This document shows positions 519 to 43,016 of a stretch of DNA of 64,000 bases, in pieces. The stretch lies in NCBI RefSeq assembly GCF_013122565.1, contig NZ_CP053258.1, one strand, 5' to 3'. Under the pieces are notes generated by a model that worked only from the letters and a program-made list of their open reading frames with translations, did not search any database and had not been told where the DNA came from. A program made the translations under genes and the position numbers. How positions within the stretch are numbered: position 1 is the stretch's first letter; every line of letters begins with the position of its first letter. Source of the stretch: Escherichia coli. Its GTDB lineage: Bacteria > Pseudomonadota > Gammaproteobacteria > Enterobacterales > Enterobacteriaceae.

Positions 519-1253
519 TTAAAGATGCATTAACTGGCGGAATTCTTTAACTTTGCTGCGGCTGACCGGCACTTCAAAATCCAGATCTTTCAGCCGCAGA
601 ATGTAGGTGTTATTAAACCACGGTTCGATCTCGCGGATTTTGTTCAGATTGACACAAAATGAGCGATGGCAGCGGAAAAAATGCGACGGCGGCAGTTTGC
701 TGCAAAATTCGGTAATGTTCATCGGCATTACGTAGGATTCACGCCGCGTATAAACAAAGGTCATTTTCTCGTGCGCTTCGGCGTAATAGATATCGTTAAT
801 GGGGGTGACGATTATTCGCTCATCTTTCACCAGATTTATGGTGTCATTCTCACGCGTTACCGTCGCGGCAGGCGTGCTGCTGGTCTGCTGTTGTTGCCAG
901 GCCGCTTCCAGTTTTTGCAGCATCCCGGTAATGCGTGACTCCTGATACGGTTTGAGAATGTAGTCAAACGCCTCCAGTTCAAACGCTTCTACCGCATGTT
1001 CTTTCCACGCGGTGATAAACACAATAAACGGTTTATGGGCGAACTGGCTGATGTTTTGCGCCAGCAACACACCATCCAGCGACGGAATATTGATATCCAG
1101 AAAAATGGCGTCGACGCGGTTATGCTGCAAAAACTTCAACACGTCCAGACCGTCGTCAAAGGTGCCGACAATCTCCATCTGGCTGTGCTCTTTAATTAGC
1201 CAGCTCAGTTCCTGTTGTGCCAGGAATTCGTCTTCAACAATGATGACTTTCAC
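519..1253 (-). CDS. ypdB: LytTR-family response regulator YpdB
   Basis: ORF 519..1271 has a receiver domain (VKVIIVEDE...D) and a C-terminal LytTR domain; the GTG at 1253 gives the 244-aa form I recall for K-12; start could be 1271. Confidence 0.9.
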   Translation of the reverse strand: MKVIIVEDEFLAQQELSWLIKEHSQMEIVGTFDDGLDVLKFLQHNRVDAIFLDINIPSLDGVLLAQNISQFAHKPFIVFITAWKEHAVEAFELEAFDYILKPYQESRITGMLQKLEAAWQQQQTSSTPAATVTRENDTINLVKDERIIVTPINDIYYAEAHEKMTFVYTRRESYVMPMNITEFCSKLPPSHFFRCHRSFCVNLNKIREIEPWFNNTYILRLKDLDFEVPVSRSKVKEFRQLMHL

Positions 1254-1267
1254 AATATCACTCCGGC

Positions 1268-2965
1268 TCAAAGCAATAACGTAGCCTGTGAGGCGACTGG
1301 GGTGCGTTGGTTAGGAATGTAAAACGCAATTTCCGTTCCTGGTTCCAGGCGGCGGATATGCAGCCCCTCGCCATACAATAACTTCACGCGATGATGGACA
1401 TTCAGCAGGCCAATTTTATTGCCCGGCATTTCATTCGCTTCGACCCGCTCAATCACCTTTGGATCGATGCCGTGCCCGGTATCCCGCACCGCAATGCGTA
1501 CCCGATTACCACACTCTGCAACGCTGATGGTGACAACGCCTTTACCTTTGCAAGGCTGAATACCGTGGACAATGGCGTTTTCCACCAACGGCTGGATCAG
1601 CAGGCTGGGAATGCAGCAATTCACCTCTTCATCAATATCATAGATAACCGTCAGCTTGTCGCCAAAGCGGGCCTGCTCAATGGCAATATAGTCTTTAATT
1701 TGATACAGCTCTTTTTTGATATCGATTTGCTCATCGTCTTTTAATTCAATGTTATAGCGCAGATAGCGCGACAAATTAAAGATCAGCTGGCGAGCAGTAT
1801 CCGGATTCAGACGGATCGACGATGAAATAGCGTTCAGAGCGTTAAACAGAAAATGGGGATTAATTTTGCTTTGCAGGGCGCGAAGCTCTGCCTTATTTGC
1901 CATTTCACGTAGCTGCTCGGCGCGTGAAACCTCCAGTTGGGTGGAGATGATTTGCGACAGACCGACCGCCATTTCCTGTAATGACGAGGTGATCTGATGC
2001 GCGTGGCAGTAGTAAATTTTCAGCGTTCCGGTCACAACGCCTTTCTCCCACAATGGGATCACCAGCATGGAATGAATCTCTGGTGTGCGGTGGGCTTCAT
2101 CATTGTTTTTAATGATTATTTTTCCGTAATTCATCGCCTGACGGGTAGTCGGGCTAATGAAGTCATCGCCATTCTGATAGTTATGTTCACCTACGCCAAC
2201 ATAGGCCAGCACATGATCGGTATTAGTAATCGCCACCGCATCGGCGTGAATATCATCGCGGATAATTTCGCAGACCTTGCGTAATGACTCGCTATTGACA
2301 TGGCGAAACAGCGGCAGCGTTTTGTTGGCGATATCCAGCGCCAGCTTGGCCTGCCGCGCGGCGCTGGCCTCTTTTTCGCCCTCAACGCTTTGCACCAGAA
2401 GCACAATAAAGCCGATACAGACGCTGCCGAGGATCATTGGAATGCCGATTTTAGAGACGATATCGATCCCCAACGCGGTAGTTGGTGCCCAGACAATCAC
2501 CAGAATCATGGTCAACGTTTCGCACAACATGCCGCCGAGAATACCGACGCGCCAGCGCTGCGCTTTGGGGATTTTCAGGTTGATCCAGCCCGATATACAA
2601 CCCGCCAGAATGCTGGTGATAAAGCAGGGGATCGCCGTCACGCCGCCGATATCAATTAAATAACGGTGAATACCCGCAATCACGCCGGTAATGATGCCGA
2701 CCCACGGGCCAAACAGAATCCCGCCTGACATCACCGCGATAATACGTACGTTCACCAGCGAGCCTTCTACGGGGACGCCGGACCAGGTGCTGAACAGGGC
2801 GAACAGCGAGAAAATGGCGGTAACAGCAAGCAACTCTTTTGGGGAGTGTGCCGACTTGTGCAACAGCTCGCGAAACAGGCGGATACGGATGAGAAAGAAC
2901 AGGCAGATAAGCATTAACGCTGCCCGATCGAAGACCGCCAGCAGCATGTTGAATATTTCGTGCAC
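1268..2965 (-). CDS. ypdA: Sensor histidine kinase YpdA (LytS family, 5TM-GAF-HK)
   Basis: 565-aa ORF with N-terminal membrane domain and histidine kinase motifs ([15 protein letters not shown]); directly upstream of ypdB. Confidence 0.92.
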
Positions 2966-3341
2966 GGGTGACTCTGAATAAGGATTAAACCTCTATGATA
3001 GGTAACCTGAAGGCTGATGACCAGCAGGCCGTTTTTGAGGAAAAACCACAATTTTAAAAGGGGATTGAAAGATAAATGGTGTATTAGCAATGCATCTCTT
3101 GATAATGCACATCTGGGTGGTAAATTTATTGAAATTATAATGTTAATAAAATGAGTGGTATTTTTCTTGTTAGCGTAGATAAATTTCCTGTTTTTAAAGC
3201 GGAGTTCCTCATTTAAAGCCATTAACAAAAATGTTCTAAAACGCTGGACAGACAGAAATTAATCAGGCTATTTTCAAAACAGCCACCATCGTGGCAGCGT
3301 CGCTCGGACGGTCCGGGCGCTAACGTTAATCTGAGGAAATT

Positions 3342-4580
3342 ATGGCTGACACTCGCCCTGAACGTCGCTTTACGCGCATTGATCGTCTCCCGCCCTACGT
3401 TTTTAACATTACCGCTGAACTGAAAATGGCTGCGCGTCGGCGCGGCGAAGATATTATCGATTTCAGTATGGGTAACCCGGACGGTGCCACTCCACCGCAT
3501 ATCGTCGAAAAATTATGTACGGTGGCCCAGCGCCCGGACACGCATGGTTACTCCACGTCACGCGGCATTCCGCGGTTACGTCGCGCCATTTCTCGCTGGT
3601 ATCAGGATCGATACGACGTTGAGATCGACCCGGAATCAGAAGCCATCGTCACCATTGGTTCGAAAGAGGGGCTGGCACACCTGATGCTGGCGACGCTGGA
3701 TCATGGTGACACGGTGCTGGTGCCGAATCCAAGCTACCCCATTCATATTTACGGCGCGGTGATTGCCGGGGCTCAGGTACGCTCAGTGCCGCTGGTGGAA
3801 GGTGTCGATTTCTTCAACGAACTGGAACGCGCCATTCGTGAAAGTTATCCGAAACCGAAGATGATGATCCTCGGCTTCCCGTCGAACCCCACCGCGCAAT
3901 GCGTGGAGCTGGAGTTCTTCGAAAAGGTTGTGGCGCTGGCGAAACGCTACGATGTGCTGGTGGTCCATGACCTGGCCTATGCAGACATCGTCTACGATGG
4001 CTGGAAAGCGCCGTCAATCATGCAGGTGCCAGGTGCACGCGATGTGGCGGTCGAGTTCTTTACGCTGTCAAAAAGCTACAACATGGCGGGCTGGCGTATC
4101 GGCTTTATGGTTGGCAACAAAACGCTGGTCAGTGCGCTGGCACGTATTAAAAGCTATCACGATTACGGCACCTTTACGCCGTTGCAGGTGGCAGCGATTG
4201 CGGCGCTGGAGGGCGATCAACAGTGCGTGCGCGATATTGCCGAACAGTACAAACGCCGCCGTGATGTACTGGTAAAAGGGCTGCATGAAGCGGGCTGGAT
4301 GGTCGAAATGCCGAAGGCTTCGATGTATGTCTGGGCGAAAATCCCTGAACCTTATGCTGCCATGGGCTCGCTGGAATTTGCCAAAAAGCTGCTTAACGAA
4401 GCGAAGGTCTGTGTCTCTCCGGGGATTGGCTTTGGCGACTACGGCGACACGCATGTTCGCTTTGCACTGATTGAAAACCGCGACCGTATTCGTCAGGCGA
4501 TTCGTGGGATTAAAGCGATGTTCCGTGCCGATGGTTTACTACCCGCCAGCACCAAACATATTCACGAAAACGCGGAATAA
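3342..4580 (+). CDS. alaC: Glutamate-pyruvate aminotransferase AlaC (class I PLP aminotransferase)
   Basis: 412-aa ORF with aminotransferase class I motifs ([12 protein letters not shown]); length and position match E. coli AlaC/YfdZ. Confidence 0.92.
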
Positions 4581-4600
4581 ACACCGACCTCAAAAATGCA

Positions 4601-4629
4601 AACAGGAGCCTGATGGCTCCTGTTTTTCA
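4601..4629. terminator. Rho-independent terminator-like hairpin between convergent alaC and ypdK
   Basis: Inverted repeat aacaggagcc/ggctcctgtt followed by a T-run, immediately after the alaC stop. Confidence 0.5.
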
Positions 4630-4644
4630 TTGCACAGTTTGCTT

Positions 4645-4716
4645 TTAGATCATCAGGGCAAAAGTACCGGCCCAAACGATGACCATAAAAGAAATGCCCA
4701 TAAAGAAATATTTCAC
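4645..4716 (-). CDS. ypdK: Small membrane protein YpdK (23 aa)
   Basis: Minus-strand translation from GTG at 4716 gives (M)KYFFMGISFMVIVWAGTFALMI-stop, matching my recollection of the 23-aa YpdK; too short for the ORF track. Confidence 0.6.
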   Translation of the reverse strand: MKYFFMGISFMVIVWAGTFALMI

Positions 4717-5071
4717 TTTACATCTCTCCGCGTAATTACTGTTACGCCTGAATGACTTCATTACACCTGATACAGTGAGTTGACACCGGGCAAAACGACC
4801 TTAAAAGTCCTGTATTTTACCGTGGGCATCACCCCAGAATTCTGAGCTAAACTGCTCCAGACGGCGCTAATGTACGCCTAAAATTGAAACGAGACAATAG
4901 GCATTTTCTTATTTACTTTTAGTAACTTACAGGTGTCTCATATCGGCGACAGTTTAATTTCTGACGGTAATAATTAGAGATTCAGCGAAGGAAAAAACCT
5001 TAAGAAAAAAGCCATAAAAACCATGGGGTTATTATGGCTGATTTGAGGAGGGAAAGAGTCAGAGCAGTTTG

Positions 5072-34840: not shown

Positions 34841-35326
34841 ATGCAAGTTTTTATCATGCGTCACGGCGACGCAGCCCTCGATGCCGCCAGTGATTCGGTT
34901 CGTCCTCTGACTACTAACGGTTGTGACGAATCTCGCCTGATGGCGAACTGGCTGAAAGGTCAAAAAGTGGAAATCGAACGCGTTCTGGTGAGCCCGTTCC
35001 TGCGAGCCGAGCAAACACTGGAAGAAGTAGGGGATTGTCTGAACCTGCCTTCCAGTGCAGAAGTTCTGCCGGAGTTAACGCCCTGCGGCGATGTTGGTCT
35101 GGTCAGTGCCTATTTACAGGCGTTGACCAATGAAGGTGTTGCTTCGGTACTGGTGATCTCCCACTTACCGTTAGTCGGGTATCTGGTTGCCGAGTTATGT
35201 CCGGGCGAAACGCCGCCTATGTTTACCACCTCAGCCATTGCCAGCGTAACGCTTGATGAAAGCGGAAACGGCACATTCAACTGGCAGATGAGCCCGTGTA
35301 ATCTGAAGATGGCAAAAGCTATCTGA
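34841..35326 (+). CDS. sixA: Phosphohistidine phosphatase SixA
   Basis: 161-aa ORF MQVFIMRHGDA... carrying the RHG phosphatase motif. Confidence 0.93.
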   Translation: MQVFIMRHGDAALDAASDSVRPLTTNGCDESRLMANWLKGQKVEIERVLVSPFLRAEQTLEEVGDCLNLPSSAEVLPELTPCGDVGLVSAYLQALTNEGVASVLVISHLPLVGYLVAELCPGETPPMFTTSAIASVTLDESGNGTFNWQMSPCNLKMAKAI

Positions 35327-35977
35327 AGCTATAGAAATATGCCCGGTGAGATCACGTCATCGGGCATCTCCTTTCGTTCCTCTTGGCTGTATTCACACAT
35401 TTTCCCATTGATTAGGCGATTATTTTTGTGGAGCTATATTTCATATTTATATGAATGGCAGGTTTTTCCGGGAATGACATATCGTGTGGCGGAGGGTTAT
35501 TTAAGGAATGCAATGACATTTATTAGAGGAGCCTGTAACAATAGGCACACGTAAATAAAATTAAAAAGGAGTTGTGTCTTGATTTATATTATATATTGTT
35601 TTTCATTAATTATCCGCAGAAAAAAACAGAAATCGCATTTTTTTGTTGTTGCTTTCTTATTACCCACTTTGTAATGTGGCCCATATGAATTTAACCGTTA
35701 TGCAATAATTACGTTCTGTATTCATAGGGAATTCCTCAAAAAACATTATCCATAGTGATATTTTAAGTTTTACTTAAAATCATTGTTAGTAAAACTAATT
35801 TGAATTCACCGTTCAAAACTCCCACTATCGCCGCACACCAAAGAATATCATCTTATGCAATCTTTTGCGGGAAGCAATGACGCATATTCGATGGTCATCT
35901 CTAAGCCGCTCACTTCAATATTAATCTGAGGTTTTCCGGCGCTTATAATTTAATTATTTATGGTTTAAGGACAAATA

Positions 35978-36544
35978 ATGAGTAAGTTTGTTAAAACTGC
36001 TATTGCAGCGGTGATGGTAATGGGTGCGTTCGCGTCAACTTCTTCCATCGCTGCCGGTAACAACGGTACCGCGCGTTTCTACGGCACCATCGAAGATTCC
36101 CCGTGCTCCATCGTGCCTGACGACCACAAACTGGAAGTTGATATGGGCGATATCGGTTCTGAAACACTGAAAGGCAGTAAATCAACCACCCCGAAAGAGT
36201 TCCAGATCCGCCTGCAGGACTGCGTGTTTGATACTCAGGCCAAGGCTTCGACTGTCTTCACCGGCACCATCTATACTGCGGTCGCCAACAGCAACAACTA
36301 CACCATTTTCAGCACCGAAACCGGTATGCCATTTGAGCATGTCAGCCTGGCGATTGGTGATGAACATGGCGCGGCATACAAAAGCGGTATGCCTATCGAA
36401 CAGGCGCTTACTATAGATTCCAGCACCACGAAAGGTAAACCTAACCAGACGCTGAACTTTAAAGCATGGCTGGTGGGTGAAAGTGAAATGCCGACCCTGG
36501 GGGCATTTGAAGCTAACACCACGTTCCAGATCACTTATCTCTGA
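35978..36544 (+). CDS. yfcV: Fimbrial major subunit YfcV
   Basis: 188-aa ORF with signal peptide and C-terminal fimbrial beta-strand (...TFQITYL). Confidence 0.88.
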   Translation: MSKFVKTAIAAVMVMGAFASTSSIAAGNNGTARFYGTIEDSPCSIVPDDHKLEVDMGDIGSETLKGSKSTTPKEFQIRLQDCVFDTQAKASTVFTGTIYTAVANSNNYTIFSTETGMPFEHVSLAIGDEHGAAYKSGMPIEQALTIDSSTTKGKPNQTLNFKAWLVGESEMPTLGAFEANTTFQITYL

Positions 36545-36550
36545 TGTTTC

Positions 36551-36582
36551 ACCCCATGGCGGCAACGTCATGGGGTTTTTTA
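36551..36582 (+). terminator. Intra-operon hairpin between the major subunit and usher genes
   Basis: accccatg...catggggt stem followed by a T-run; typical attenuator position in chaperone-usher operons. Confidence 0.5.
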
Positions 36583-36613
36583 ATTGATTCTGACGAAATT
36601 ATAATAATCACGG

Positions 36614-39277
36614 ATGGATACGTGTATGCCAGACCATTCTCTTTTCCGTTTACGGGTGCTTCCCTGGTATATTGCGCTGGCAATATCCGGAAGCTATGCC
36701 AGTGCCTGGGCTGATGATGATATTCAGTTTGATTCCCGTTTTCTGGAATTAAAAGGCGACGCAAAAGTCGATCTGAAACGTTTTTCCAGTCAGGGCTATG
36801 TCGAGCCGGGTAAATATAATTTACAGGTTCAGGTAAATAAGCAGCCGCTCCCGGATGAGTACGATATTTTCTGGTATGCCTCTGAAAAAGATGCCGGTAA
36901 AAGTTATGCCTGCCTGACGCCCACGCTGCTCGCCCAGTTTGGTCTGAAAGAGGAGATTGTAAAAAATCTGCAATGGTCCCGCAACGGCGAATGCCTCGCG
37001 CCAGGTCAGCTGGAAGGGACAGAGATTAAGGCTGATTTAAGCCAGTCCGCGTTATTAATCTCCCTGCCACAGGCCTATCTGGAATACAGCGATATGGACT
37101 GGGACCCGCCTTCCCGCTGGGACGATGGTATTCCCGGCCTGATTGCTGACTACAGCATTAACGCCCAGACCCGCCACGATGAGCAGAGCGGCGATGACAG
37201 TAACGACATCAGCGGTAACGGCACGGTAGGGGTAAACCTCGGCCCGTGGCGTCTGCGCGCCGACTGGCAGACGGACTACCAGCATACCCGCAGCGACGAT
37301 GACGATGAATACAGCGACAGTGACGGCAACAGCACACAAAGAAACTGGGAGTGGAGCCGCTACTACGCCTGGCGCGCCCTGCCGTCATTAAAAGCCAAAC
37401 TTGCGCTCGGCGAAGATTACCTCAACTCCGATATTTTCGACGGCTTTAACTATGTCGGCGGCAGCGTCAGCACTGAAGACCAGATGTTACCGCCAAATAT
37501 GCGCGGCTACGCCCCCGATATTTCCGGGGTGGCGCACACCACGGCGAAAGTGACCGTCAGCCAGATGGGCCGCGTCATTTACGAAACCCAGGTTCCGGCG
37601 GGGCCGTTCCGCATTCAGGATTTGGGCGATTCCATCTCCGGTACGCTGCATGTGCGTATTGAAGAGCAGAACGGTCAGGTGCAGGAATATGATATCAGCA
37701 CCGCGTCGATGCCGTTCCTGACCCGTCAGGGCCAGGTGCGCTATAAAGTGATGATGGGCCGCCCGCAGGAGTGGGGGCACGATATTGCCGGCGGATTTTT
37801 CTCCGGCGGTGAAGCCTCCTGGGGGATTGCCAACGGCTGGTCGCTCTACGGCGGCGCGCTGGCGGATGAAAACTATCAGTCGGCGGCCATTGGCGTCGGG
37901 CGTGACCTGTCAATTCTTGGTGCGATGGCCTTTGACGTCACGCACTCACATGTCCGCCTGGATGACAACACTGCCTACGACAATCGTACCCTGGACGGTA
38001 ACTCGTTCCGCGTGAGCTATGCCAAAGACTTTGACGAACTCGACAGCCGCGTTACCTTCGCCGGATACCGCTTCTCTGAAAAAAACTTCATGACCATGAG
38101 CGAATATCTGGATGCGAAAGATGCGGACATGGTGCGCTCCGGCAACGATAAAGAGATGTACACGGTTACCTACAACCAGAACTTCCGGGATGCCGCGGTT
38201 TCTGTCTATCTCAACTACACCCACCGCACCTACTGGGACCGGCCGGAACAGACCAACTACAACGTGATGATGTCCCACTATTTCAATATGGGCAGCATCC
38301 GCAACATGAGCGTGTCCCTGACCGGTTACCGCTACGAATACGACAAAAGCACCGACAAAGGGATGTATATCTCGCTGAGTATGCCGTGGGGCGACAGCAG
38401 TACCGTCAGCTATAACGGCAACTACGGCAGCGGCTCAGACTCCAGCCAGGTCGGTTATTTCAGCCGTATCGACGATGCCTCGCATTACCAGATTAACGTC
38501 GGCACCAGCGAAAACCACGGCAGCGTGGATGGCTACTACAGCCATGACGGCTCGCTGGCGCAGGTGGATTTAAGTGCCAACTACCATGAAGGCGAGTATC
38601 AGTCTGCCGGGATTTCACTGCAGGGCGGCGCGACGCTGACCGCGCACGGCGGGGCGCTGCACCGCACGCAATCGCCCGGCGGGACACGTCTGCTGATTGA
38701 CGCTGACGGCGTGTCCGGCGTGCCGGTGGAAGGTAACGGTTCGCCGGTTTACACCAACATGTTTGGTAAAGCGGTCGTGGCGGATGTCAACAACTACTAC
38801 CGTAACCAGGCCTATATCGACCTGACTAAACTGCCGGAAAACGCCGAAGCCACCCAGTCGGTGGTGCAGGCCACGCTGACCGAGGGCGCGATTGGCTACC
38901 GCCAGTTTGCAGTGATCAGCGGGCAGAAAGCGATGGCGGTACTGCGCCTGAGCGACGGCAGCCATCCGCCGTTTGGTGCGGAAGTGAAAAACAGCGACGA
39001 GCAGCAGGTGGGGCTGGTTGACGATGACGGCAACGTCTATCTGGCCGGGGTGAAACCGGGCGAGCGGATGACGGTGTCGTGGAACGGTGAGACACACTGT
39101 GACATCGCGCTGCCGGACCCGTTACCGGCCGATCTGTTCAACGGCCTGTTGCTGCCCTGCCAGAACCGGGGTGCCGTCGCGCCTGCCACCTCGCCGGACG
39201 TCAAACCGGTGATTCAGGAGCAGACGCAGCAGGTGACACCAACGGAACCCCCGACTTCAATTTCAGTAAACCAGTAA
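36614..39277 (+). CDS. yfcU: Fimbrial usher protein, apparently intact
   Basis: 887-aa uninterrupted ORF with usher-family features. Confidence 0.88.
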   Translation: MDTCMPDHSLFRLRVLPWYIALAISGSYASAWADDDIQFDSRFLELKGDAKVDLKRFSSQGYVEPGKYNLQVQVNKQPLPDEYDIFWYASEKDAGKSYACLTPTLLAQFGLKEEIVKNLQWSRNGECLAPGQLEGTEIKADLSQSALLISLPQAYLEYSDMDWDPPSRWDDGIPGLIADYSINAQTRHDEQSGDDSNDISGNGTVGVNLGPWRLRADWQTDYQHTRSDDDDEYSDSDGNSTQRNWEWSRYYAWRALPSLKAKLALGEDYLNSDIFDGFNYVGGSVSTEDQMLPPNMRGYAPDISGVAHTTAKVTVSQMGRVIYETQVPAGPFRIQDLGDSISGTLHVRIEEQNGQVQEYDISTASMPFLTRQGQVRYKVMMGRPQEWGHDIAGGFFSGGEASWGIANGWSLYGGALADENYQSAAIGVGRDLSILGAMAFDVTHSHVRLDDNTAYDNRTLDGNSFRVSYAKDFDELDSRVTFAGYRFSEKNFMTMSEYLDAKDADMVRSGNDKEMYTVTYNQNFRDAAVSVYLNYTHRTYWDRPEQTNYNVMMSHYFNMGSIRNMSVSLTGYRYEYDKSTDKGMYISLSMPWGDSSTVSYNGNYGSGSDSSQVGYFSRIDDASHYQINVGTSENHGSVDGYYSHDGSLAQVDLSANYHEGEYQSAGISLQGGATLTAHGGALHRTQSPGGTRLLIDADGVSGVPVEGNGSPVYTNMFGKAVVADVNNYYRNQAYIDLTKLPENAEATQSVVQATLTEGAIGYRQFAVISGQKAMAVLRLSDGSHPPFGAEVKNSDEQQVGLVDDDGNVYLAGVKPGERMTVSWNGETHCDIALPDPLPADLFNGLLLPCQNRGAVAPATSPDVKPVIQEQTQQVTPTEPPTSISVNQ

Positions 39278-39296
39278 CGTGATTAAGGAATGATCC

Positions 39297-40040
39297 ATGT
39301 TTAATCTGACTAACACTGCAAAAACCGTTATCCCTGCGCTGGCGCTGCTGGCCAGTTTCTCCAGCCACGCCTCGGTGACACCCGACAGGACGCGGCTGGT
39401 GTTTAACGAAAGCGACAAATCCATCAGCGTCACGCTGCGCAATAATGACCCCAAACTGCCCTATCTGGCGCAGAGCTGGATAGAGGATGCAAAGGGCAAC
39501 AAAATCAGCTCGCCGCTGGCGGTGCTGCCGCCGGTACAGCGCATCGATGCGATGATGAACGGCCAGGTGAAGGTGCAGGGGCTGCCGGATATCAACAAAC
39601 TGCCAGCCGACCGCGAGAGCGTGTTCTACTTTAACGTGCGCGAGATCCCGCCGAAATCAAACAAACCGAACACGCTGCAGATTGCGCTGCAGACGCGCAT
39701 CAAGCTGTTCTGGCGACCGAAGGCGCTGGAAAACGTCAGCATGAAAAACCCGTGGCAGCACAAGGTGACGCTCACCCGCAACGGCCAGGATTTTACCGTC
39801 AATAACCCGACGCCGTACTACGTGATCATCAGCAACGCCAGCGCGAAAAAAGGCGGCAACCCGCCGGCGGGATTCACACCGCTGATGCTGGAGCCGAAAA
39901 CCTCCGCCCCGCTGAATGCGAAGATGGACAGCGTGCCGGTGCTGACCTATATCAACGACTACGGCGCGCGGATGCCGCTGTACTTCAAATGCACCGCCAA
40001 CAACTGCCAGGTGGATGAAGAGCAGAGCCGCAAAGGCTGA
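39297..40040 (+). CDS. yfcS: Periplasmic fimbrial chaperone YfcS
   Basis: 247-aa ORF with signal peptide and PapD-like chaperone features. Confidence 0.88.
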   Translation: MFNLTNTAKTVIPALALLASFSSHASVTPDRTRLVFNESDKSISVTLRNNDPKLPYLAQSWIEDAKGNKISSPLAVLPPVQRIDAMMNGQVKVQGLPDINKLPADRESVFYFNVREIPPKSNKPNTLQIALQTRIKLFWRPKALENVSMKNPWQHKVTLTRNGQDFTVNNPTPYYVIISNASAKKGGNPPAGFTPLMLEPKTSAPLNAKMDSVPVLTYINDYGARMPLYFKCTANNCQVDEEQSRKG

Positions 40041-40055
40041 TGCCGGGAGGGACTT

Positions 40056-40553
40056 ATGAGTCACAAGTTTTTAGCGGGGGCGGGGTTGCTGGTATTCAGT
40101 CTCTGTAGTTTCCCGGTTATGGCTGGCAGTAAAACCGTAGAGTTAACTCTGCGCGTGTTAGTGGATGCGCCACCACCGTGCTCCGTGAAGGGCAGTGCGG
40201 TGGAATTTGGCAATGTGACGATCAACAAGATCGATGGCACGAATTACCGACAGGATGCGAAATACACCCTGAGCTGCGGCAATAAAGCCAGCGACGATTT
40301 ACAGATGCAGCTCAAAGGGAATACCGCCGTTATCAACGGAGAAACGGTCCTCAGTACGGATATTGCCGGCCTGGGTGTGCGGATAGAAAACGCTGCCGAT
40401 AATTCCCTGTTTGCGGTAGGTGAAAATACCTGGACGCCTTTTAACTATAACACTCAGCCACAGCTGAAAGCGGTGCTGGTAAAACAGAGCGGAGTGCAGT
40501 TAACGCCGTCGGAATTTAACGCCACTCTGACCATGGTGGTGGATTACCAATGA
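40056..40553 (+). CDS. yfcR: Fimbrial-like protein YfcR
   Basis: 165-aa ORF with signal peptide and C-terminal ...VVDYQ motif. Confidence 0.82.
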   Translation: MSHKFLAGAGLLVFSLCSFPVMAGSKTVELTLRVLVDAPPPCSVKGSAVEFGNVTINKIDGTNYRQDAKYTLSCGNKASDDLQMQLKGNTAVINGETVLSTDIAGLGVRIENAADNSLFAVGENTWTPFNYNTQPQLKAVLVKQSGVQLTPSEFNATLTMVVDYQ

Positions 40554-41038
40554 AAAGACTCACGCTGATTTTACTGTGCACCTGCTGGGGCACAGCCCAG
40601 GCCGCCGACGAGGACATCACATTTCATGGCACCCTGGCATCGCCGCCCGCCTGTAGCATCAGCGGCGGGAAAACCATTGAAGTGGAGTTTCGCGATCTCA
40701 TTATCGACAGCATTAACGGGAATTATGGCCGGCAGGAAGTTGTATATGAGCTTAGCTGCGAATCCGATGCCCGCGATCCTGGCTGGCAAATGTCCCTGAC
40801 GTGGACCGGCACGCCCACCAGCTACAACGATGCCGCCATCGAGACGGATGTGCCGGGCTTCGGGATTGAGCTTCAGCATGACGGACAGCGTTTTCTGCTC
40901 AACACGCCGCTAAACATTGACGCCACGGATTTCAGCAAGAAGCCGAAGCTGGAGGCCGTACCGGTAAAAGCGGCTGATGCGGTGCTGAGTGACACGACTT
41001 TTTCTGCTTACGCAACTTTACGGGTGGATTACCAATGA
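40550..41038 (+). CDS. yfcQ: Fimbrial-like protein YfcQ
   Basis: 162-aa ORF with signal peptide and C-terminal ...RVDYQ; overlaps neighbours by 4 nt. Confidence 0.82.
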   Translation: MKRLTLILLCTCWGTAQAADEDITFHGTLASPPACSISGGKTIEVEFRDLIIDSINGNYGRQEVVYELSCESDARDPGWQMSLTWTGTPTSYNDAAIETDVPGFGIELQHDGQRFLLNTPLNIDATDFSKKPKLEAVPVKAADAVLSDTTFSAYATLRVDYQ

Positions 41039-41574
41039 AAATAGCACGCACTTATACGCCGGCTTACGCGCTGTTCGCGGGCCTGCTGCTGACCGCCAGC
41101 ACAGACACTTTCGCCATGGACAACAACCTGCATTTTTACGGCAACCTGCTGAGTAAATCCTGCACGCTGGTGGTGGACGGTACCAACCTGGCAGAAATTC
41201 ATTTCCCCACCGTCAGCAACCGGGATTTGATGGTCGCCGGGCAGTCCGCGCATCTGCCGGTTGTGTTTAAGCTGAAAGACTGCAAAGGGCCTGCGGGATA
41301 CAACGTCAAAGTCACGCTGAGCGGCACTGAAGACAGCGGTCAGCCGGGATTTCTGGCAATCGATGACACCTCCACCGCGCAGGGGGTGGGGATAGGGATG
41401 GAAACGCTTGACGGCAAGCGGGTGGATATTAACAACACCACCGGTGCGACCTTCGCGCTTATCAACGGTAACAATGACATTAATTTCAGGGCCTGGATCC
41501 AGGCGAAAAGCAGTCGGGATGTGACGATCGGTGAATTTACCGCCTCTTTAACTGCGACATTTGAGTACATTTAA
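41035..41574 (+). CDS. yfcP: Fimbrial-like protein YfcP
   Basis: 179-aa ORF with signal peptide and C-terminal ...TFEYI. Confidence 0.82.
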   Translation: MKIARTYTPAYALFAGLLLTASTDTFAMDNNLHFYGNLLSKSCTLVVDGTNLAEIHFPTVSNRDLMVAGQSAHLPVVFKLKDCKGPAGYNVKVTLSGTEDSGQPGFLAIDDTSTAQGVGIGMETLDGKRVDINNTTGATFALINGNNDINFRAWIQAKSSRDVTIGEFTASLTATFEYI

Positions 41575-42394
41575 AATGAAAATACTACGATGGTTGTTCG
41601 CTCTGGTCATGCTTATGTCTGCGACAGAAGCTCTGGCTGCCGGGCATAGCATCAAGCTTTACTACGGAATTAGCCATGATCTGCAGGCTATCACGGCTTT
41701 TAGCCTGAAAATCATGATGCCATCAGGGGTCTACGATGGAGAATATAAGAGTAGTAACTTTGCACACATAGGGGATTATCTGCAAAATATAAGCTGGAAT
41801 GGTCCGCCTCCTGCACCTTCAGTAAAGATGATAGACTACAAGCAAAAGCTCGATGAATCATTATGCCCGGGGCTACCTTCTGGGTGGCTCTGTGGGTCTC
41901 TTGAATTTGAAATTATTGTTTCTGCTGATATTGAATCTTTCTTTTCTTGCCCTTGGTTGGTTGTTATGAGTGATACCGTGACCTCTAGAGGTGTGGCTTA
42001 TAAGGGGCCGGACGGTTATGCCACACTTTGTCAAACTGTTTCTGTTCAACCTTATGATGTTTCATGGAATGAGAATTATGTCAGTAAGTCTAAACTGCTC
42101 ACTCTGCAATCGACGGGCGGTGTGGTTGAGAAAACGCTTTCAACGTATTTAATGAAAGATGGCAAATTGTGCGACAGTTCGCAGATGAATGAAGCCGGTG
42201 GTTACTGCCGCTGGGTTGCGCAGATGATAACTTTTACTGCAACGGGATGTGATAAGGCGGAAGTCACTGTCACGCCAAATCGACATCCTATAACGGACAA
42301 ACAATTACACGATATGGTCGTGCATGTTGATACCAGTAGTATGCAGCCAATCGATTCTACTTGCCGGTTCCAGTACATACTGAATGAGTTGTAG
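41561..42394 (+). CDS. yfcO: Fimbrial tip adhesin-like protein YfcO
   Basis: 277-aa ORF with signal peptide; last gene of the yfc operon. Confidence 0.8.
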   Translation: MSTFKMKILRWLFALVMLMSATEALAAGHSIKLYYGISHDLQAITAFSLKIMMPSGVYDGEYKSSNFAHIGDYLQNISWNGPPPAPSVKMIDYKQKLDESLCPGLPSGWLCGSLEFEIIVSADIESFFSCPWLVVMSDTVTSRGVAYKGPDGYATLCQTVSVQPYDVSWNENYVSKSKLLTLQSTGGVVEKTLSTYLMKDGKLCDSSQMNEAGGYCRWVAQMITFTATGCDKAEVTVTPNRHPITDKQLHDMVVHVDTSSMQPIDSTCRFQYILNEL

Positions 42395-42410
42395 CCGTTA
42401 GAAACACTCA

Positions 42411-42464: not shown

Positions 42465-43016
42465 TCAGGGCAACTCCGGTGGCAGCCACTCTTCCACTTC
42501 AATCAACACCAACAACGCCGCATCACCGCCATACTCTTTTGGTGCCTGGTGAAACGCCATCACATGCGGATGTTGTGCCAGCCACAGCGGTGTTTGTTGC
42601 TTCAAAATATGCTTCCCGTGACCATGCATCACGCAGGCGCAAAACACATGTTCGCGGCGACAGGCGGCAATCAACGCGCCCAGTTCCTGCTTGGCCTGCA
42701 GCTGCGTCAGACCGTGTAAATCCAAAAACAATTCCGGCGAATAATCGCCACGGCGCAACTTCTTCGCCTCAAAATGACTCACATCCGGGCGAACATATTT
42801 CACCGGACCTTCGGTATTTAATAACGGCTGAAACTCATCGGAGAAATAATGGCTGGCATCAGCCTGCTCCTGAATCAAGCGTTTCACCGGTACTTCGCTG
42901 ATTTTCTTACGCTGTGGTCGGTGGACAATCGTGTCCTGCTTAATCTTGCGAGTCCCCGCCATCAACTGGCGAAACAGCGCCTGGTCCTCCTCGCTTAGTG
43001 TTGTTTTCTTTTTCAT
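42465..43016 (-). CDS. smrB: Ribosome rescue endonuclease SmrB (Smr domain protein)
   Basis: 183-aa ORF with an Smr domain (LDLHGLT...HGHG). Confidence 0.9.

Follow-up and report, generated by a model that had tools for sequence, protein, structure and literature searches.

The yfc fimbrial operon of this Escherichia coli strain occupies positions 35978–42394, on the plus strand, of the window, the 64,000-nucleotide stretch of DNA that was analysed. It is composed of seven uninterrupted genes, yfcV-U-S-R-Q-P-O, and belongs to a rare and deeply diverged allele class. The best explanation of the region, to which we assign a probability of about 80%, is an intact Yfc operon of the pi clade, orthologous to stfACDEFGH of Salmonella, whose usher gene carries a nonsense mutation in K-12.

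Organization and identity of the yfc operon

The seven genes are consecutive stop-free open reading frames that fill the region, as the sequence-only reading had described, and each of the seven products is complete in its domains, whether fimbrial, usher, chaperone, or adhesin (Pfam). Their products match E. coli proteins deposited at NCBI letter for letter (QJU27573–QJU27579 / WP_171460553–WP_171460559). The genes had also been described as joined by 4-nt overlaps; such ATGA overlaps connect yfcR to yfcQ and yfcQ to yfcP, and the other four of the six junctions are gaps of 81, 19, 15, and 1 nt, from 5′ to 3′.

The cluster is bracketed by sixA (34841–35326) and smrB (42465–43016), at the same site as in K-12, which bears out its earlier assignment to yfc. 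The Yfc type is defined by locus (Wurpel et al.), and the region has the sixA-smrB (yfcN) site, a YfcU-type usher, and a 3′ adhesin of the StfH/YfcO (DUF2544) family. The cluster is the known Pap-like Yfc fimbrial locus of E. coli, in its customary place on the chromosome. The K-12 operon (yfcOPQRSUV, b2332–b2339) agrees with it in gene content, with seven genes, in gene order, and in domains. It differs from the operon studied here in the amber codon TAG579 of yfcU, in a nucleotide identity of approximately 79%, and in an upstream region that cannot be aligned.

Members of the pi clade of Nuccio and Baumler have ushers that are PapC-like rather than FimD/gamma-like, encoded by a gene that precedes that of the chaperone. 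Both features were found in the yfc operon, since its usher is closer to PapC than to FimD, and yfcU lies upstream of yfcS. The position of the usher gene before the chaperone gene, which had been considered uncommon, is normal in this clade and is shared by PapC/PapD and by StfC/StfD, SteB/SteC, and StdB/StdC, the named families nearest to YfcU and YfcS. The yfc cluster has also been listed as pi-type (PMC3032704).

The Stf cluster of Salmonella enterica (stfACDEFGH) has the same order of a major subunit, usher, chaperone, three minor subunits, and DUF2544 adhesin, and the top NCBIfam family of each yfc product is the corresponding Stf protein. The Stf usher is only approximately 58% identical to that of the window, and the equivalog cut-offs were all missed (score/cut-off: StfA 118/267, StfD 324/447, StfE 166/264, StfF 135/253, and StfG 149/253). 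The relationship is at the level of orthologs only. In the literature, yfc is described as the ortholog of stf and StfH as the adhesin; variation among StfH alleles is likewise located chiefly in the N-terminal half and alters binding to host cells (PMC5343171).

Chaperone, fimbrial subunits, and tip adhesin

The major fimbrial subunit YfcV (35978–36544, 188 residues) contains a PF00419 domain (8e-15) and has StfA, below the equivalog cut-off, as its top NCBIfam match. It has a signal peptide, a single cysteine pair (residues 43 and 82), and the C terminus ITYL, and it is 73% identical to YfcV of K-12. The minor subunits YfcR (40056–40553, 165 residues; PF00419 at 7e-18), YfcQ (40550–41038, 162 residues), and YfcP (41035–41574, 179 residues) also belong to PF00419, with StfE, StfF, and StfG as their respective top NCBIfam matches. 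YfcQ is a rare variant, the 90%-identity cluster of which has two members. Each of the four PF00419 proteins begins with a signal-peptide-like segment and contains a cysteine pair, and their C termini read TYL, DYQ, DYQ, and EYI.

The periplasmic chaperone YfcS (39297–40040, 247 residues) is formed by the two PapD-like domains PapD_N and PapD_C (PF00345, PF02753). It aligns to PapD with an E-value of 5e-58, at 200 bits as opposed to approximately 90 bits for FimC. The arginine of the motif DRTRLVF and the lysine of QTRIKLF, the subunit-anchoring Arg8 and Lys112 in the numbering of PapD, are aligned with the PapD residues, as is the C-terminal cysteine pair.

The predicted tip adhesin YfcO (41576–42394, 272 residues), also a rare variant, matches the StfH/YfcO adhesin family PF11245 (DUF2544) with 374.8 bits (cut-off 25), and an identical protein is named "fimbrial adhesin YfcO" at NCBI. 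The annotated start of yfcO is ATG 41576, and the maximal reading frame opens with TTG 41561 (277 residues).

PapC and PapD of P pili are the nearest solved structures. The two systems share the usher gene 5′ of the chaperone gene, as well as Arg8, Lys112, and the C-terminal disulfide of the chaperone. In contrast to pap, the yfc operon lacks PapI/PapB regulators and a GATC pair, its adhesin is of the DUF2544 and not of the PapG-like type, and no equivalent of PapJ or of the terminator subunit PapH was found in the cluster.

Divergence and modularity of the yfc allele

The yfc cassette is approximately 79% identical to that of K-12 (78.8% of nucleotides over 91% of the query), whereas its flanks are 97–100% identical. 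The amino acid identities of the yfc proteins to those of K-12 are 72–84%. Synonymous divergence (dS) from K-12 ranges from 0.85 to saturation in the yfc genes, as opposed to 0.05 in sixA. A K-12-type allele would be at least 90% identical, including the promoter region; this cluster lies below that identity, and its upstream region cannot be aligned to K-12. Only 13 of 5,426 complete genomes carry a cluster at least 90% identical to the one described here, the closest at 93%, and no match to the tip module exceeds 89.3%. The strain thus has a rare, deeply diverged allele class across the whole cassette, promoter region included. This most distinctive trait of the cluster was overlooked in the sequence-only reading. 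High polymorphism of yfc has been published previously.

The ratio dN/dS is 0.04–0.18 in six yfc genes, and it is 0.08 in yfcU relative to K-12. Such low values reflect constraint over the long term, and they would also be seen if a missense or regulatory change had inactivated the operon recently. The cassette is under purifying selection.

The yfc operon can be divided into an assembly module, composed of yfcV-U-S and the promoter, and a tip module, yfcR-O. The tip module is especially unusual, in yfcQ and in the N-terminal half of yfcO; for both YfcQ and the YfcO N-terminal domain, almost nothing known reaches an identity of 90%. O157 strain EDL933 has the yfcV-U-S module in common with this strain, at approximately 80% identity, and megablast matches to EDL933 and many other strains cover the assembly module alone (query 644–4738), leaving the tip module unmatched. 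The tip module of the window keeps the architecture of K-12 with a diverged sequence. In E. coli W and O157:H7, an alternative pi-type cluster named epo/eso is located at sixA-yfcN (PMC3032704), and therefore the locus holds interchangeable fimbrial cassettes.

Instead of being an old E. coli allele, the cassette may have been imported rather recently, from a different Escherichia species or a different enterobacterial genus, by homologous recombination in sixA and in the flank formed by smrB and the 3′ part of yfcO, a possibility that we place slightly below even odds. The divergence from K-12 has sharp edges, with an abrupt onset after the sixA terminator and an end inside the 3′ part of yfcO, and the step in dS between sixA and the yfc genes points in the same direction. 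The usher is 94% identical to that of Pseudocitrobacter, 89% to that of the E. albertii group, and 84% to that of K-12. The assembly module of Pseudocitrobacter is 90–95% identical in nucleotides and is located elsewhere, with sspB on one side and, on the other, a regulator gene of the GntR/FCD family that is probably nanR. However, 13 E. coli isolates that look unrelated and come from many hosts carry the allele class together with its promoter region at the sixA-smrB locus, with the upstream region 89–99% conserved. No integrase, IS element, or repeat was found flanking the cassette, the transfer between E. coli and Pseudocitrobacter could have taken either direction, and balancing selection on an ancient polymorphism predicts the same pattern. 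Import concerns the origin of the cassette and is compatible with the reading of the region as an intact, diverged Yfc operon.

It is also possible, although we regard it as doubtful, that the yfc site behaves as an antigen- or serotype-like locus, with ancient classes (dS of about 0.85 or more) and two modules that recombine separately and cross between Escherichia species and into other genera such as Pseudocitrobacter. The rare tip would then confer a receptor specificity unlike that of the Yfc fimbriae of K-12 and uropathogenic E. coli.

Upstream region and regulation

The sixA-yfcV intergenic region (35327–35977, 651 bp) has a GC content of 34%, with 100-nt blocks of 27–32%, compared to 49% for the window. 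The terminator hairpin of sixA spans positions 35339–35367, and similarity to K-12 ends directly after it. The remaining AT-rich, allele-specific part (35368–35977, plus strand) is the presumed promoter and H-NS target, and it is 89–99% identical to that of strain MB53. Promoter-like hexamers are located at 35513–35542 and 35561–35590, at a frequency that shows no excess over chance, as a promoter scan gave 7 sites against 7.0 expected. The AT-rich region is probably silenced by H-NS under laboratory conditions.

A fimS-like invertible promoter was rejected because there is no suitable pair of inverted repeats around the upstream region. A Dam/Lrp phase switch like that of pap was also rejected, as the lone GATC of the 651-bp intergenic region lies within the sixA terminator. 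No dedicated regulator of yfc was found. The region upstream of yfc contains only short low-complexity reading frames of at most 71 residues, which give no grounds for gene status, and the sole Rfam match at gathering thresholds in the whole window is a tRNA-Arg (25039–25110).

The gap between yfcV and yfcU contains a GC-rich hairpin (36551–36586, plus strand) with an 11-pair stem, of which seven pairs are G-C, and a loop of four nucleotides, followed by TTTTTTAATTG. It is the strongest terminator-like site of the region and is likely a partial terminator, or attenuator. By analogy to other fimbrial operons, the hairpin may set the stoichiometry of subunit to usher.

The reading frames could be intact in an operon that is functionally dead or permanently silent owing to a recent missense or regulatory defect, so that gene integrity has no phenotype. 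Yfc has been called cryptic in laboratory strains (PMC3559732), the promoter scan gave no site above chance, and the upstream region is unrelated to its K-12 counterpart. Nevertheless, we consider such a loss improbable, as all the residues checked are kept, namely Arg8 and Lys112 of the chaperone, the cysteine pairs of the usher, and the cysteine pairs and C-terminal tyrosine motifs of the subunits. The low dN/dS of the yfc genes and the conservation of the upstream region across the 13 genomes of the allele class also argue against it.

Usher and the K-12 nonsense mutation

The usher YfcU (36626–39277, 883 residues) contains an N-terminal domain, a barrel with a plug, and C-terminal domains (PapC_N, PF13954; Usher, PF00577; PapC_C, PF13953). 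It had been described as one frame of 887 residues. The frame is uninterrupted and full length, and the longer figure corresponds to the maximal reading frame, which opens at ATG 36614; both the family model and the annotation as deposited begin at ATG 36626. Residues 1–883 align to positions 1–881 of the 881 of NCBIfam model NF011812, with 1805.7 bits (cut-off 972). PapC (7lhg_C) matches with an E-value of 2e-218 over residues 34–846 of YfcU, which cover residues 2–806 of the 809 of mature PapC without a large gap, and both cysteine pairs are kept. The score is 731 bits for PapC compared to approximately 265 bits for FimD. Relative to PapC, YfcU has an additional C-terminal tail of approximately 37 residues rich in proline, threonine, and glutamine. 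In a global alignment, YfcU is 84% identical to its K-12 homolog. The ushers of K-12 and MB53 are 881 residues long, and a two-residue insertion in an acidic loop is the only length difference. One might suspect, from the two in-frame ATG codons and the 881-residue ushers of K-12 and MB53, that an alternative start hides a frameshift or an assembly error. This reading is refuted by the end-to-end alignments to the family model and to the PapC, K-12, and Pseudocitrobacter ushers, and an identical usher protein was deposited independently at NCBI.

The statement in the sequence-only reading that the K-12 usher gene is a pseudogene was correct, as RefSeq annotates it with an "internal stop". Comparison with K-12, proposed there as the way to locate the lesion, revealed one amber codon, TAG at codon 579 of 881, in the context DKGM*ISLSMPWGD. 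The corresponding codon of the window is TAT (Tyr581, 38366–38368, plus strand); MB53 also has TAT, and E. coli C has TAC in a full-length coding sequence that carries no pseudogene flag. The K-12 63-mer with TAT in place of TAG has no exact genome match; together with the TAC of E. coli C, this identifies TAC as the intact codon of the K-12-like sequence. The K-12 mutation is a lineage-specific TAC-to-TAG nonsense change at codon 579. Judging from the alignment to PapC, the truncated protein would be missing the last part of the barrel together with the two C-terminal domains.

Of 5,426 complete genomes of E. coli, only 363 contain the exact 63-mer context of the K-12 amber codon, and yfc has been described as core-associated and intact in every genome examined by Wurpel et al. 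(PMC3559732). An intact usher is therefore the normal state of E. coli and not a peculiarity of this strain. Because the usher is intact, competence of the strain to assemble Yfc fimbriae is plausible, as far as can be judged from its genes. Plausible assembly here fits a report, as summarised in a later paper, that Yfc fimbriae of K-12 were undetectable despite forced expression (PMC5343171).

Proposed mechanism of fimbria assembly

We propose that, once the operon is transcribed, the Sec system would export YfcV, YfcR, YfcQ, YfcP, and YfcO. The PapD-like YfcS would take up the subunits through donor-strand complementation, and the PapC-like YfcU would polymerise them at the outer membrane into a YfcV fiber. 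At its end, the fiber would have a short tip in which minor subunits bear YfcO, an adhesin of two domains. Read-through past the hairpin and T run behind yfcV is probably attenuated, which would leave the major subunit in excess. Under laboratory conditions, the operon is probably kept silent by its AT-rich upstream region.

Implications

The intactness of the operon carries little weight in itself, as intact yfc operons are the rule in E. coli and the K-12 pseudogene was already annotated. The K-12 lesion, a single TAC-to-TAG change, offers a clean test of why forced expression in K-12 gave no visible fibers. The variability and modularity of the yfc locus, which this strain demonstrates, bear on studies of adhesin specificity. 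In addition, yfcV used as a PCR or in-silico marker of uropathogenic strains detects one allele class rather than the presence or absence of the operon.

Organization of the yfc cluster

The yfc cluster comprises seven uninterrupted genes on the + strand, yfcV (35978–36544), yfcU (36626–39277), yfcS (39297–40040), yfcR (40056–40553), yfcQ (40550–41038), yfcP (41035–41574), and yfcO (41576–42394), positioned between sixA (34841–35326) and the convergent smrB (42465–43016). K-12 has the same gene order at the same position. The window is part of an E. coli chromosome, whose fadJ–sixA flank matches many E. coli genomes at 98.7% identity, and all seven cluster proteins occur verbatim in NCBI (E. 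coli QJU27573–QJU27579, 4.82 Mb contig). YfcV, YfcR, YfcQ, and YfcP each contain a Pfam Fimbrial domain. The usher YfcU is composed of PapC_N, Usher, and PapC_C domains, the chaperone YfcS of PapD_N and PapD_C domains, and YfcO contains DUF2544. In NCBIfam, each gene has its Salmonella Stf counterpart as the top family. The cluster represents a known system of pi-type chaperone-usher fimbriae (Yfc/Stf), and its intact state is the normal one. YfcO is a predicted adhesin by analogy to Salmonella StfH, for which the role comes from allele-swap experiments (PMC5343171).

Four-nucleotide ATGA overlaps, which the sequence-only reading had ascribed to the operon as a whole, are present at the R/Q and Q/P junctions; the other four of the six junctions are gaps of 81 nt (V/U), 19 nt (U/S), 15 nt (S/R), and 1 nt (P/O). 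The closest solved relatives are by far PapC for the usher (731 bits, against ~265 for FimD) and PapD for the chaperone (200 bits, against ~90 for FimC), and the closest named families are StfC/StfD, SteB/SteC, and StdB/StdC. The usher-before-chaperone order, previously regarded as uncommon, is normal in this clade. YfcS retains Arg8, Lys112, and the C-terminal cysteine pair of PapD.

Elsewhere in the window, dsdC (24000–24941) and the tRNA-Arg(CCT) gene argW (25036–25110, – strand) are only 94 nt apart. K-12 carries the CPS-53/KpLE1 prophage at argW, so the attachment site appears to be empty in this strain.

Integrity of the usher and the K-12 lesion

YfcU passes the NF011812 subfamily model of NCBIfam across its full length. 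Residues 2 to 806 of the 809 residues of mature PapC align to it without large gaps, and both PapC cysteine pairs are kept. YfcU also aligns end to end with the ushers of K-12 (84% identity) and Pseudocitrobacter sp. (94%), the sole length difference being a two-residue insertion in an acidic loop; a masked frameshift, sought by alignment, is therefore absent. Judged from these alignments, the usher is really intact, as had been proposed. The previously stated length of 887 residues corresponds to the maximal open reading frame; the start at 36626, four codons later, is the one used by the family model and in the deposited annotation, and it gives 883 residues. Past the end of the PapC alignment, YfcU has a C-terminal tail of ~37 residues rich in Pro, Thr, and Gln (residues 847–883, window 39167–39277), which is shared by K-12 YfcU.

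In RefSeq, K-12 yfcU is marked as a pseudogene because of an 'internal stop'. Its translation contains one stop (...DKGM*ISLSMPWGD), a TAG at codon 579 of 881 (3915–3917 of the K-12 locus, L001). The corresponding codon is TAT in the window (38366–38368) and in strain MB53, the closest complete genome, and TAC in E. coli C, which has a full-length, unflagged coding sequence. According to the PapC alignment, the K-12 product would be truncated inside the barrel and lose both C-terminal domains, an assignment that we take from established knowledge of the PapC structure.

The exact 63-mer containing the K-12 TAG is present in 363 of 5,426 complete E. coli genomes, many of them K-12 derivatives, with a few isolates also flagged 'internal stop'; a further 1,410 carry a K-12-like context with one to three mismatches. 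Wurpel et al. placed Yfc among the core-associated clusters and, in their genome set, found it alone among these to be 'intact in all genomes' (PMC3559732); the K-12 nonsense codon evidently went uncounted under their criteria. Therefore, the earlier statement that the K-12 usher is a pseudogene was right, but the conclusion that an intact usher sets this strain apart was wrong. Earlier work, as summarized by De Masi et al., found Yfc fibres undetectable upon forced expression in K-12, and adhesion to T24 cells increased about tenfold (PMC5343171). The undetected fibres are consistent with a defective usher. Because the lesion is an amber codon, common laboratory suppressor backgrounds (supE44, supF) could partly restore the full-length K-12 usher, and we speculate that amber suppression might cause strain-dependent Yfc phenotypes.

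Boundaries and putative regulatory elements of the cassette

The flanks of the cluster are 97–100% identical to K-12, but the cassette only ~79% in nucleotide sequence. Similarity stops directly 3' of the sixA terminator hairpin (35339–35367) and returns within the 3' part of yfcO. The hairpin has the same structure in both strains, with compensatory changes (GG..CC in this strain against AA..TT in K-12), and the loss of similarity behind it marks where the variable cassette begins on the left. The AT-rich region upstream of yfcV, with 100-nt blocks at 27–32% GC, is part of the cassette, and we infer that H-NS silences this leader. Searches of the yfc upstream region found no invertible-element repeats or paired GATC sites, an Rfam scan no element at the yfc locus, a promoter scan of the yfc region no signal above chance, and a search for a nearby regulator gene no credible candidate. 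The strongest terminator-like site of the region is a hairpin in the V/U spacer (36551–36576; 36551–36586 with its T run). Given the usual position of such elements after the major-subunit gene, it probably acts as an attenuator and controls how much major subunit is made relative to usher.

Divergence and modularity of the yfc locus

Cluster proteins are 72–84% identical to those of K-12, and dS starts at 0.85 and extends to saturation, compared with 0.05 in sixA. The dN/dS values of six genes are low (0.04–0.18); therefore, these genes are kept under purifying selection. The allele class is present in only 13 of 5,426 complete genomes, from diverse hosts, in which the yfcV-U-S assembly module is 94–95% identical to the window. 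The yfcR–O tip module has a best match of 89.3%, and YfcQ and YfcO fall into 90%-identity clusters of only two sequences among ~15 billion. Usher homologues form several allele groups, whose identity to the usher of the window is 95% for the representative of its own group (381 sequences), 89% in E. albertii (37), 84% in the K-12 group (12,700), 83% in E. fergusonii (420), and 58% in Salmonella StfC (5,640). At the sequence level, the cluster is a rare, deeply diverged allele, which the sequence-only reading overlooked. The allele sequences were already deposited and annotated; the earlier observation is confirmed and its interpretation partly supported.

Pseudocitrobacter sp. (GCA_965231605.1) has the same seven-gene architecture at another site (locus L005, 5198–11777, against window 35823–42401), between sspB and a gene for a GntR/FCD-family regulator, followed by DHDPS-family and MFS-transporter genes; the last three are probably nanR, nanA, and nanT. 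Its assembly module is 90–95% identical to the window in nucleotide sequence (usher 94% in amino acids), and its tip module only 61–72%, which points to intergeneric transfer and to recombination by module. In many E. coli, O157 among them, only the assembly module is shared with the window. Within yfcU (36881–39130), 150-nt windows switch back and forth between ~99% and 86–89% identity to MB53, suggesting intragenic recombination among allele classes. This mosaic and modular pattern agrees with the unusually high nucleotide diversity of yfc genes and the incongruence of their trees with MLST (PMC4850163), and with the different pi-type cluster at the sixA–yfcN site of E. coli W and O157 (PMC3032704). 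The main value that remains lies in the precise location of the K-12 lesion and in an example of modular, trans-species variation at the yfc locus.
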